A stretch of DNA of 64,000 nucleotides from Gemmatimonadota bacterium (GTDB lineage Bacteria; Gemmatimonadota; Gemmatimonadetes; Gemmatimonadales; GWC2-71-9), in contig QHUU01000065.1 of the NCBI GenBank assembly GCA_003222155.1, positions 12,131 through 76,130 on the forward strand, in the 5' to 3' direction. The position numbers were made by a program, and so were the translations under genes. The number at the start of each line of letters is the position of its first letter. Within the stretch, counting starts at the first letter, position 1. The notes below the pieces were generated by a model. It was given only the letters and a program-made list of their open reading frames with translations, was not told the origin of the DNA and did not search any database. Positions 1,252-4,785 of this stretch are shown here, piece by piece.

Positions 1252-4200
1252 GTGCCTGACACTCCCGGGAGCCGGGCCGAGATGCCGTTCCTCGACCACC
1301 TCGAGGAGCTGCGTTGGCGCATTCTGTACAGCCTGCTCGCGGTCGTGGTCGGCACGTTGGTCGGCTGGATGATCGTCGAGCACGTCGACGTCATCGGCTT
1401 GCTGATTCAGCCGATCAAGCCGCTGATCCCGGGCGGCAAGCTGCGCGTCACCAGTCCCACCGACCCGTTCTTCATCACGCTGAAGTTCGCCTTCGTGGTG
1501 GGGCTGGTGCTCGCGTCGCCCGTGGTAGGGTATCAGGCCTGGGCGTTCCTCGTGCCGGCGTTGTACGAGCGGGAGCGACGCCTGATCATCCCGGCGCTGT
1601 CCGCCGGTGCCCTGCTGTTTCTCGCAGGCGCGTCCGCCGCGTACCTGTGGGTGCTGCCCCGCGCGCTGGGCGTCCTGCTCAGCTTCCAGCAGAACGTCTT
1701 CGACCCCCTCATCACGGCGGACAAGTACTTCGCCTTCGCCGCCCAGCTGATCATCGCGTTCGGCGTCGTCACCGAGCTGCCCCTGGTGGTGGTCATTCTC
1801 GCGATCCTCGGTCTCGTGAGCCCGCAGTTCCTGGCCCGCAACCGGCGCTACGCCATCGCCATCTCGGCGGGAGCGGCCGCCCTGCTGGCGCCGCCGGACG
1901 CTGTCTCGATGCTCCTCATGATGGTGCCCCTGTGGCTCCTGTACGAAGTGAGCATCTGGTGCGCCTGGGTCGTCGAGAAACGCCGGGTGCGACGGCAGCG
2001 GGCCGGAGGGGGAGCGGCGAGCGCCGCCGCCCTGGCCGTATTGCTGCTGTTTGCCCTGGGCGGGTCGCTCCAGGCGCAGACCCCGCCCCTGCGGCCCCCC
2101 CTCCGGCCGGCGCGCCCCGACACGGGACGCACGGCCGCGGACTCCCTGCAGGGTCGGGCGCTCGACACCGCGACCGCCCGAAAGCTCGGCCTCCCCACCG
2201 GGCCGAGCCGCAGCTTCCCGGCCTCCGATGCGGTGATCGACTCCCTCAAGCAGCTCAAGGGATTCCGGATGACGCAGTACGTGGCCGACACGCTGGTCGT
2301 GCAGGGGGGCGACACCGAGACGATCCACCTGCGCGGCGCGGCGTACGTCGAGCGGGAAGGCACCAAGGTGGAGTCCGACTCGATCCGGTACCGCCGGCAG
2401 AGCTGCCGCCTCGACGCCGTGGGAGAGCCGAAGCTGTTCGATCAGGCGACCGTGCTGGTGGGTGAAGGCATGGCGTACGACACCTGCGTCAAGCGCGGCA
2501 CCGTGCACAAGGCGCTCACCGATTTTCAGCAGGGCGCCGCGCATTGGCTGGTGCGGGGAGACCTCGCGGTGGATTCCGGCTCCACGCGCCTGTACGGCGC
2601 CAACAGCGAGATCACCTCGGACGACAACCCCGTTCCCGACTACCACTTCTCCACCGGTCAGATGAAGTGGCTCAACAAGAACGTGATGGTGGCGCGCCCC
2701 GCGGTGCTCTACATCCACGACGTCCCGATCATGTGGCTGCCGTTCATCTTTCAGGACGTCCGCCGGGGGCGTCGCAGCGGCATCCTGGTGCCGCGCTTCG
2801 GGCTCAGCGACATCGTGCGTCCCACGCGCCGCTACCAGCGCCACGTGGCGAACCTCGGGTACTACTTCGTGATCAACGACTACACCGACGTTCTGGTGTC
2901 GGGAGACTGGTACGCGGACCGCTACCTGGCGATCAAGGGACAGACGCGCTACCGCTGGCTCGACCACTTCGTCAACGGCGGCCTGTCATTCGAGCGCTAC
3001 GCCCAGCTCGACACCCCGGGCAGCTCGATCCGTCTCGGCTGGCAGCATCAGCAGAGCTTCTCCTCGCGGACCAGTTTCAACGCGAGCGTCGACTATGCGA
3101 CGAGCACGAGCGTGATCCAGAACAACACGGTCAATCCCTACCTCGCGACGGCCAGCCTGGGCTCGCAGATGAGCTTCAACAAGCAGTTCGACTGGGGCAC
3201 GCTCAACATCGGCGGCAGCAGGCGCCAGGAGATCGGGAGCGGCCTGATCACGCAGAACTTTCCCAACGTGAGCCTGACCCCGTCGCCGGTGAACATCACG
3301 CCGGCGATCACGTGGTCGCCCGGCTTCTCCTATAACAACCAGCAGACGTTCCACCAGCTGGAGGCGCCCGTGCTCCTCCCCGGGGGCGCCCAGGATACCC
3401 TGTTCGCCGACACCCGCCAGACGGGCCTCAACTTCCAGACCCCGCTGCGGCTGGGCCGCTGGACCTGGAACAACAACTTCGTGATGAACGATGCCATCAG
3501 CAACGCGCGCCAGGGAGTCGACATCCTCGACTCGACCGCCCTCGGGGGGGTCCGCCACGTGGTCTACTATCAGACGTTCAGCACGACCATCGACTGGGAC
3601 ACCGGCATCAACCTGCCGTCGCTTTTCACGGGAACGTGGAAGCTCCAGCCCGGTATCTCCATCGTCAACCAGACGTCGCAGGGGAGCTTCCGGATCCGCA
3701 ACCAGTTCACGGGCGGGCAATGGGTGCAGCAGGGTAAGCGCCTGCAGTTCAGCGCCGGTCTCTCGCCCACGTTCTTCGGTTTTTTCCCGGGGATCGGCCC
3801 CATCGAGCGGATCCGGCACTCGGTGTCGCCGATCGTGAGCTACGCCTATGCGCCCGGTTCCCAGGTGTCCGACGAGTTCGCGCACGCCGTCGACCCCACC
3901 GGGCGCAACTTCAGGGCGCGCAGCGATCCGCAGCAGACCATCAGCCTGGGCCTGTCGCAGAACTTCGAAGCCAAACTCAAGCCGCCGCCGGGCGACACGA
4001 CCGAGCACGCGGCGCGCAAGCTCCGCCTCCTGAACATCAGTACCAGCTCGTTGTCGTACAACTTCGAGCAGGCCAAGCAGCCCCACCACACCGGTTGGCA
4101 GACACAAGTTCTGAACAACACGCTCGCTTCCGATCTCCTGCCGGGGTTCAACTTCAGCGTCACCCACGACCTGTGGAACGGTCAGGTGGGCACCGACACC

Positions 4201-4785
4201 GCGAGGTTCGACCCGTTTCTGACGAACATCTCGGCCAGCTTCACGATCACGCCCGCCACCATTCGGGGAATCGCCGGCCTGCTGGGCCTGGGCGGCAAGG
4301 CGCCCGCCAACGCGCCCCCGACCCCGCCCGCAGGCACGCAGGGGCAGCCGGGCGTGCCACCGGCGGGAGCACCGTTCGGGCAGAAGGGATTCGCAGGGCC
4401 GGGCGGACTGCCGGGCGGAGGCGCGGGATCGGGGTTCAACCTGTCAGTGACCTACACGGGGTCGCGGACACGGCCCCACGCTGTCGATACCTTGCTGACG
4501 GGCGTCCCCGTGGCGAGCGGCACGGGCGGACGCCAGCAGGTGACGCTGCGCCTCTCGTTCCAGCCCACGGCGCACTGGTCGGCGACTTGGAATTCGAGCT
4601 ACGATTTCGACACCCAGCAGTTCGGAATGCACGTCATTCAGCTGGAGCGGGACCTGCACCGCTGGCACGCGAGCTTTTCGTTCAACAAGACCCCCACGGG
4701 CAGCTTTGCGTTCAGCTTCTACGTTTCGCTGCTCGACCAGCCCGACATCAAATTCAACTACGAACAGCAGTCGCTCACGCGTTAG
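1252..4785 (+). CDS. tatC: Fusion: twin-arginine translocase TatC (aa ~1-245), internal signal peptide, LptD-like outer-membrane LPS-assembly protein (aa ~276-1177)
   Basis: TatC motifs MPFLDHLEELRWR, WAFLVPALYERE, ELP, PPD with six hydrophobic segments; then aromatic-rich amphipathic beta-strands ending RDLHRWHASFSF...PDIKFNYEQ, as in Bacteroidota-type putative LptD. No stop codon between the two parts. Confidence 0.85.
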   Translation: MPDTPGSRAEMPFLDHLEELRWRILYSLLAVVVGTLVGWMIVEHVDVIGLLIQPIKPLIPGGKLRVTSPTDPFFITLKFAFVVGLVLASPVVGYQAWAFLVPALYERERRLIIPALSAGALLFLAGASAAYLWVLPRALGVLLSFQQNVFDPLITADKYFAFAAQLIIAFGVVTELPLVVVILAILGLVSPQFLARNRRYAIAISAGAAALLAPPDAVSMLLMMVPLWLLYEVSIWCAWVVEKRRVRRQRAGGGAASAAALAVLLLFALGGSLQAQTPPLRPPLRPARPDTGRTAADSLQGRALDTATARKLGLPTGPSRSFPASDAVIDSLKQLKGFRMTQYVADTLVVQGGDTETIHLRGAAYVEREGTKVESDSIRYRRQSCRLDAVGEPKLFDQATVLVGEGMAYDTCVKRGTVHKALTDFQQGAAHWLVRGDLAVDSGSTRLYGANSEITSDDNPVPDYHFSTGQMKWLNKNVMVARPAVLYIHDVPIMWLPFIFQDVRRGRRSGILVPRFGLSDIVRPTRRYQRHVANLGYYFVINDYTDVLVSGDWYADRYLAIKGQTRYRWLDHFVNGGLSFERYAQLDTPGSSIRLGWQHQQSFSSRTSFNASVDYATSTSVIQNNTVNPYLATASLGSQMSFNKQFDWGTLNIGGSRRQEIGSGLITQNFPNVSLTPSPVNITPAITWSPGFSYNNQQTFHQLEAPVLLPGGAQDTLFADTRQTGLNFQTPLRLGRWTWNNNFVMNDAISNARQGVDILDSTALGGVRHVVYYQTFSTTIDWDTGINLPSLFTGTWKLQPGISIVNQTSQGSFRIRNQFTGGQWVQQGKRLQFSAGLSPTFFGFFPGIGPIERIRHSVSPIVSYAYAPGSQVSDEFAHAVDPTGRNFRARSDPQQTISLGLSQNFEAKLKPPPGDTTEHAARKLRLLNISTSSLSYNFEQAKQPHHTGWQTQVLNNTLASDLLPGFNFSVTHDLWNGQVGTDTARFDPFLTNISASFTITPATIRGIAGLLGLGGKAPANAPPTPPAGTQGQPGVPPAGAPFGQKGFAGPGGLPGGGAGSGFNLSVTYTGSRTRPHAVDTLLTGVPVASGTGGRQQVTLRLSFQPTAHWSATWNSSYDFDTQQFGMHVIQLERDLHRWHASFSFNKTPTGSFAFSFYVSLLDQPDIKFNYEQQSLTR

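Follow-up and report, generated by a model that had tools for sequence, protein, structure and literature searches.

In the solved structures 4B4A and 9DZZ, the C-terminus of TatC, the receptor of the twin-arginine translocation (Tat) system, lies in the cytoplasm, and the solved structures of LptD, the outer-membrane protein that inserts lipopolysaccharide (LPS), have 26 barrel strands. In another pair of envelope proteins, cytochrome b is fused with cytochrome c1 (FbcH), which places a polytopic inner-membrane protein with a cytoplasmic C-terminus and then an exported protein in one chain, and according to Thony-Meyer and colleagues (around 1991) the FbcH precursor is reportedly cut at an internal signal sequence. 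Fusions of cytochrome b with c1 are typical of Bradyrhizobiaceae (PMC4986455). A polytopic protein is likewise cut in Staphylococcus aureus, where signal peptidase SpsB cleaves LtaS between its last helix and its large extracytoplasmic domain (PMC12260438). Here we describe a tatC::lptD gene in the window, the stretch of 64,000 nucleotides of Gemmatimonadota DNA that was analysed, in which TatC and LptD are joined in one reading frame.

The fused gene has the FbcH-type architecture: one open reading frame (ORF), a polytopic protein, an internal signal sequence and an exported protein. By analogy, FbcH is the nearest mechanistic precedent for a putative TatC-LptD polyprotein. Both FbcH products belong to a single complex within a single membrane, whereas TatC and LptD belong to the unrelated Tat and Lpt machines in two membranes, with a cut that is predicted. 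LtaS differs further, being one enzyme that is inactivated by the cut rather than a fusion of two proteins, in an organism without an outer membrane. We found no description of a TatC-LptD fusion in the searchable literature, a search that left subscription journals and supplements outside, and the text of a survey of TatC diversity (PMC3827258) contains none of the words 'fused', 'fusion', 'LptD' or 'OstA'.

The gene sits on the 130-contig draft assembly of an uncultured soil bacterium, whose genome is 95% complete. Its frame, 1252..4785 (+), comprises 1177 stop-free codons counted from GTG 1252, and identical database proteins are called at 1167 aa, placing the start at ATG 1282. Residues are numbered by the 1177-aa frame unless marked as model residues, which refer to the 1167-aa protein. 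The parts of the gene are:

1282..4785 (+), fused tatC::lptD, likely start ATG 1282 (1167 aa), stop codon 4783..4785
1294..1929 (+), TatC domain, aa 15-226 (PF00902, E 5e-62), with a six-helix body to about aa 241 (base 1974)
1975..2001 (+), Arg-rich cytoplasmic loop E242-R250, the TatC tail after transmembrane helix 6 (TM6) and now also the n-region of the putative signal; includes GTG 1987 (V246)
2002..2064 (+), uncharged hydrophobic stretch A251-G271, h-region of the putative former LptD signal and predicted seventh membrane helix
2065..2076 (+), c-region S272-A275, where L occupies -3 and A occupies -1; signal peptidase I is predicted to cut before Q276
2077..2271 (+), Pro/Arg-rich extension with which the predicted mature LptD begins, from Q276 to about aa 340, found in split orthologues too
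2272..2739 (+), periplasmic beta-jellyroll (OstA/LptA-like), aa 341-496, from AlphaFold2 (AF2) strands at model residues 331-486
2794..4731 (+), large outer-membrane beta-barrel, aa 515-1160 (AF2 model residues 505-1150; Foldseek)

The join reads, in the window's own translation, EKRRVRRQRAGGGAASAAALAVLLLFALGGSLQAQTPP, with the A275/Q276 boundary between bases 2076 and 2077 and GTG 1987 as codon V246. Long shadow ORFs on other frames had no family matches and are expected, because the region has 65-73% G+C. The first-pass annotation had described one 1177-aa frame holding a complete TatC and a complete LptD-like protein, joined by KRRVRRQR, a further segment and SLQA/QTPP with a site at about aa 275 (base 2076/2077). 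The ORF, the Pfam matches and TIGR00945 agree with the first statement and the translation with the second, and that observation was correct in every detail checked. Both Pfam domains, TatC and LptD_2, are present in all of the best 120 database proteins (120/120), which the source databases name 'TatC' only.

The N-terminal half is a complete TatC by profile, model and residue. PF00902 matched with 209.7 bits over profile positions 1-208, the NCBIfam equivalog TIGR00945 (tatC) with 199.8 bits against a cut-off of 132.7, and an alignment-profile sequence search returned a TatC match at E 2e-74. In an AF2 model of the 1167-aa protein (85-row alignment; mean predicted local distance difference test score, pLDDT, 78.4), the TatC body at model residues 1-242 reached pLDDT values of mostly 84-95, and Foldseek superimposed the model on TatC 4b4a with TMt 0.79 and a root-mean-square deviation of 3.4, and on 4hts with TMt 0.83. 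In an alignment to E. coli TatC (9dzz_A), H12, E15, F94, E103, E170 and D211, which we take to be functional residues of the E. coli protein, correspond to H16, E19, F99, E108, E175 and D216 and are identical at six of six positions, including all the motifs (H12, F94/E103, E170, D211) noted in the first-pass annotation; the position of E. coli Q215 is Met.

The C-terminal half is assigned to the LptD type on the basis of profiles and the structural model. Pfam LptD_2 (PF19838) matched aa 480-940 (bases 2689..4071) at E 1e-43, the alignment-profile search found LptD 7omm at E 6.8e-12, and Foldseek ranks 1-15 were LptD chains of LptDE complexes throughout, with a best E of 6e-28 and TMt of up to 0.57. 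Within LptD, the alignment profile matched the N-terminal part of both 7omm and 8h1r, and it matched LptA 8onu weakly. Like canonical LptD of the LptDE complexes of E. coli, Shigella, Klebsiella and Neisseria (4Q35, 5IV9, 7OMM, 8H1S), the protein combines an N-terminal jellyroll with a very large barrel. It differs from them in sharing only 9-14% identity, in belonging to Pfam LptD_2 and not PF04453, in carrying a long Pro-rich N-terminal extension, and in being made as the tail of TatC. Canonical LptD equivalogs in NCBIfam, including NF002997, gave weak partial matches of 17-20 bits against cut-offs of 683-944. Neither PF04453 (canonical LptD) nor PF03968 (OstA) had a match in the 95%-complete genome, nor did PF04390, the LptE model, which leaves the canonical LptE partner unmatched there. 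Together these comparisons point to an LptD-type protein that is predicted to insert LPS.

Two further features of the LptD half were noted. A Gly/Pro/Ala-rich insert of about 43 residues (aa 1017-1059, 4300..4428, +) lies inside the barrel with AF2 pLDDT below 50, and the model suggests that it is probably a long disordered loop. Ahead of the jellyroll, within 2077..2271, a short and well-conserved motif block occurs in fused and split forms alike; a periplasmic partner may dock there.

Each half is the only copy that we found. A profile search of the genome recovered one TatC, the fused one, and one LptD_2 protein, again the fused one, which is the sole LptD-type gene found. The genome also gave nine matches above cut-off to the Tat-signal model TIGR01409 and contains LpxC and LptF/G genes. 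Because each half is the genome's only copy, and TatA, Tat signals, LpxC and LptF/G are present, both halves must work. Judged from this gene content, Tat export and LPS transport both appear to depend on this single gene.

With a draft genome of 130 contigs as the source of the window, the fusion could in principle be an error of a metagenome-assembled genome, either a lost stop codon or a frameshift. The fused gene was found in 20 soil-metagenome runs, none of them listed as RNA; in 12 of the 20, half or more of the sampled words were present. Contigs from four runs of four studies span the join with no gaps (X1 and X2, 1764-2232; X4, 1956-2201; X6, 1857-2337), although one of the four runs may be the window's own source. 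Neither a stop nor an indel occurred at the join in these four runs. The variants 1980 A>G and 1995 G>C were seen at the join in all four and are both synonymous in the fused frame, and the sole indel in the metagenome contigs was a 1-base deletion at 2214 in one contig of depth 2. In addition, the frame is conserved down to 40-50% identity, also in single-contig genomes (G116, G108). An assembly or sequencing artefact is thus refuted for practical purposes.

In the genus, 19 of 19 loci with both parts had them in one stop-free frame, 13 of which reach the stop codon and six leave the contig end; at one further genus locus (L016) the tatC part is missing. For the family, we searched 121 genomes of 78 genera with PF00902 and tallied the matches by hand. 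Open frames of at least 1000 aa contained 94 of 120 TatC matches, in 69 of 78 genera. Two of the genomes counted are marked unpublished: G107, which is fused and alone in its genus, and G054, which has a short frame. Leaving them out gives 93 of 118 matches, in 68 of 77 genera. The family's 26 shorter frames comprised nine of 438-871 aa, among which at least G044, G063, G113, G066 and G009 hit the contig end by their coordinates, 15 of 258-351 aa, and two fragments (G157, 189 aa; G048, 61 aa). True split genes were present within the family in three genera (L037/L041, L040/L042, L048/L049) and in L038. L043 showed a frameshift-like split, and L047 stopped at a contig end, but its join was already read through. 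A further 20 loci, picked for long frames, were all fused, as that choice predicts. The TatC-LptD fusion is therefore a real, natural gene, present in most of the family.

Outside the family, the picture is one of neighbouring genes. In a phylum survey of 201 genomes, covering the best 150 of 201 matches, the matches listed outside the family lay in frames of 254-451 aa (among the unfused rows listed is the unpublished G213), except for G035 (1273 aa) and G276 (1224 aa). Both of these were confirmed as read-through joins, and G035 also has a separate TatC. The order tatC then lptD is the rule across the class: in other families of the order, 12 of 14 loci were split but adjacent, L021 has an in-frame stop with a start codon directly behind it, and split but adjacent genes were found in another order as well (L072). 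In the survey of relatives that the first-pass annotation had proposed as a check, long fused frames thus dominate in the family, and split neighbours prevail elsewhere in the phylum and occur in a few family genera.

The split pairs of other Gemmatimonadota (L021-L026, L028-L034, L037-L043, L049, L072) encode the same two proteins, with LptD of the LptD_2 type, in the same order. Their LptD shares the signal design, with Gln after the cut, and the Pro-rich N-terminal extension, and the pairs of families f1 and f3 share the downstream gene. They differ in having a TatC stop codon, often an acidic tail of TatC, and an lptD start of its own that is mostly in another frame, all of which are lost in the fused gene.

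In some family genomes a second type of TatC was seen, at L039, L044, L045 and L050 (G115, G052, G125 and G047). It is 45-51% identical, ends in an acidic tail and is not followed by lptD. The fused type occurs beside it in G125; for G115, G052 and G047 the second type was the only one among the matches listed.

The join itself has the design of a signal peptide, with a positive n-region, a hydrophobic h-region and small or neutral residues at -3 and -1. It differs from ordinary Sec signals in its position, at aa 242-275 behind six TatC helices and not at the N-terminus of the precursor. Because the TatC C-terminus is cytoplasmic, the Arg-rich loop would stay inside and the small-residue site would face the periplasm, where signal peptidase I acts; two S26 signal peptidase I genes are present in the genome. 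In 41 fused loci, the site had A (40) or G (1) at -1, Q at +1 in all 41, L (27), A (9), V (4) or G (1) at -3, mostly G, S or P at -5/-4, and P at +3 in 32, where the site was located by an [AGS]Q pattern plus upstream hydrophobicity, so that the -1 and +1 counts arise partly by construction. Gln followed the site in every row with a called site, fused and split alike. In a motif-free check, the most hydrophobic 11-mer of each join was taken and [AGS]Q then sought within 12 residues downstream. It was present in 56 of 59 rows, with Q most often six residues after the core and the three misses all in split rows, whereas composition-matched shuffles averaged 19.1 and never exceeded 29 of 59.

At the level of sequence, nothing thus distinguishes the internal segment from the putative signal peptides at the N-terminus of the split orthologues, and even the Gln of the predicted mature N-terminus is shared. 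Its uncharged stretch resembles theirs in length and in hydrophobic content. The first-pass annotation had proposed a basic n-region, an h-region and a site like that of signal peptidase I, in the correct orientation for export. The comparison of fused and split loci confirmed the design, and the orientation gained comparative and structural support; cleavage itself is probable.

We suggest the following course of events. Adjacent tatC and lptD genes, the latter of the LptD_2 type, would have merged in frame, losing the TatC stop codon, the acidic tail and the LptD start while keeping the Sec signal. The six TatC helices would be inserted co-translationally via the signal recognition particle (SRP), SecYEG and YidC, so that the Arg-rich loop behind TM6 would remain cytoplasmic, and the former signal peptide would then enter as a seventh helix, from inside to outside. 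The LptD part of about 900 residues would be threaded over the inner membrane, with SecA for the long periplasmic part, and signal peptidase I would cut after A275 (L-Q-A, before Q). Two products would result: a TatC of 265 residues (from M11), with the signal retained as its C-terminal helix, and an LptD of 902 residues with Gln as its first residue, which would reach the outer membrane like other barrel proteins. The mode of insertion, the cleavage and what becomes of the seventh helix are inferred, and we consider it likely that the protein is such a polyprotein, inserted by Sec and cut after A275 into TatC with a seventh helix and mature 902-aa LptD. For the earlier proposal of a cut into these two products, this means that a fusion with a retained signal is backed by comparative and structural evidence and that the cut is probable, while its corollary of tied stoichiometry fared less well, as set out below.

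The seventh helix could instead remain uncut and anchor the chain, so that LptD would be tethered to TatC by a Pro-rich linker of 60-70 residues as a link across the envelope. Translation necessarily yields a single chain, the helix and the jellyroll are indeed separated by about 65 residues of Pro/Arg-rich linker, and the uncharged stretch is slightly longer in fused than in split rows (median 21 aa in 38 fused rows against 18 aa in 20 split rows, with 14 against 13.5 hydrophobic residues; L026 gave no site). However, the -3/-1/+1 pattern is exactly that of the split orthologues, where cleavage is its only possible role, the Pro-rich linker is found in the split forms too, and repeated switching between fused and split genes would be unlikely if tethering mattered. 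An uncleaved fusion is therefore improbable in our estimate.

LptD might also be made without the fusion, by internal initiation, with the read-through product as a tolerated by-product. The first-pass annotation had pointed to GTG 1987 as a start for stand-alone LptD; this codon and others within TM6 are in frame in the window, and GTG or TTG codons occur in the hydrophobic core of many loci. Yet GTG 1987 was found in only two of 19 genus loci (L001, L003), and no in-frame ATG, GTG or TTG ahead of the hydrophobic core was conserved across the examined loci. L063 lacks any ATG, GTG or TTG between TM6 and the site, the candidates of L004, L006 and L007 lie inside TM6 only, and those of L046, L055, L056, L062 and L068 lie in the hydrophobic core only, where initiation would truncate the signal. 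Shine-Dalgarno-like words are rare at the candidate codons, and every ribosome that translates TatC would still enter LptD. These observations speak against the GTG 1987 proposal and make internal initiation as the source of functional LptD quite improbable.

The same annotation had suggested that the Arg-rich stretch might occupy TatC's own signal-binding site. The same Arg-rich tail follows TM6 in unfused TatCs, and the Tat-signal model TIGR01409 was absent among the NCBIfam matches of the fused protein at E values of up to 1, leaving this idea without support.

We used a quick maximum-likelihood tree of the LptD part to follow the fused and split states. It comprised 61 rows (39 fused, 21 split, one unknown), with no root inferred and exceptions over-represented because they were fetched on purpose. 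At least five state changes were required, compared to a mean of 17.6 after label shuffling, where none of 500 shuffles was as low as five. One large family clade was entirely fused (19 rows), a second held six split and two fused rows, and a third one split and 17 fused, while L027 and L071, from other families, were fused beside split sisters. Read from this tree, the fusion arose several times and was reversed on at least one or two occasions. In L027 and L071, which are isolated fusions, the tail between TM6 and the hydrophobic core is longer; in most family members the tail is trimmed to 8-10 residues, and L012 and L051 carry long Gly-rich inserts. Repeated interchange of fused and split genes is expected if both states give the same mature proteins, and being fused is most likely a nearly neutral condition that creates no new machine.

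A cleaved but adaptive fusion would offer synthesis at 1:1 and SRP-dependent delivery of LptD, or a seventh helix that modulates TatA binding by TatC. In its favour, the fused state occurs in 69 of 78 sampled family genera, older fusions have trimmed the loop to 8-10 residues while the isolated L027 and L071 keep the longer tail, and only one TatA-family gene was found. But the genes went back to the split state at least once or twice within the family, relatives with split genes manage with the same pair, and AF2 gave no confident packing of the helix on TatC: model residues 244-293 (seventh helix and linker) had pLDDT below 50, and non-packing is expected of a generic signal helix. We regard an adaptive benefit as rather improbable. 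The claim that Tat and LPS-export stoichiometry is tied under selection is likewise doubtful, because fused and split states switched at least five times on the tree, which argues that fusion changes little. An unlikely but wider version holds that LptD needs the SRP-targeted co-translational insertion of TatC while the seventh helix at the TM5/TM6 face tunes TatA recruitment, or that an uncut fraction links the Tat site to the site of LPS insertion in the outer membrane.

Several points weigh against the reading of a cleaved and nearly neutral polyprotein. The commonest residue at -3, L, is allowed but is not the classic Ala, and the dependence of the -1/+1 counts on the search pattern is a concern that the motif-free check lessens but does not remove. 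The Lpt pathway is only partly recognised, with no matches to the LptE (PF04390) or OstA (PF03968) models. Finally, the persistence of the fused state over about 69 genera could mean selection beyond neutrality.

The surroundings of the fused gene contain the following features:

3..431 (+), Pal-like OmpA-family gene, farther upstream (Pfam OmpA)
365..1231 (+), CpoB/YbgF-like gene with tetratricopeptide repeats (TPR), upstream (Pfam TPR_6/TPR_16)
4906..6060 (+), conserved downstream gene, exported and possibly lipid-anchored, no Pfam match; three beta-sandwich domains like fibronectin type III (FnIII) in an AF2 model (pLDDT 80)
14449..14691 (+), tatA, 80 aa, the sole TatA/B-family gene found in the genome

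The gene tatC::lptD sits at the end of an envelope cluster of the tol-pal type (3..1231, +). The downstream gene at 4906..6060 has an N-terminus like a signal or lipobox with an invariant Cys, and among the loci fetched from families f1 and f3 it is conserved behind lptD in 44. We rejected it as LptE since its model shows FnIII-like sandwiches, and rejected 4824..6095 as its frame, which gave Arg-rich out-of-frame text and no Pfam match, in favour of 4837/4906..6060. In the close relative G020 (L003:5096-6289), the FnIII-like gene as matched by tblastn is interrupted by one in-frame stop codon, which may reflect a pseudogene or an assembly error. Farther downstream, 6184..10630 (+) is a histidine-utilisation block with an aromatic amino-acid lyase (HutH-like), a urocanase and an imidazolonepropionase-like amidohydrolase.

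Naming the fused proteins 'TatC' only makes LptD look absent from these genomes. If the polyprotein reading is true, this would be a rare bacterial case in which two unrelated and normally essential envelope machines, the Tat receptor and the LPS inserter, are made as one precursor, in about 69 sampled genera. If the cut is true, an internal signal peptide behind six helices would export and free a barrel protein of 900 residues, an outer-membrane protein could be delivered co-translationally, and TatC would tolerate an extra C-terminal helix. Should the coupling of LptD to TatC insertion and TatA recruitment, or to the Tat site, hold instead, one gene would couple the biogenesis of both membranes. 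The repeated fusion and re-splitting of tatC and lptD in these bacteria would be a natural experiment on the merging of operon neighbours.

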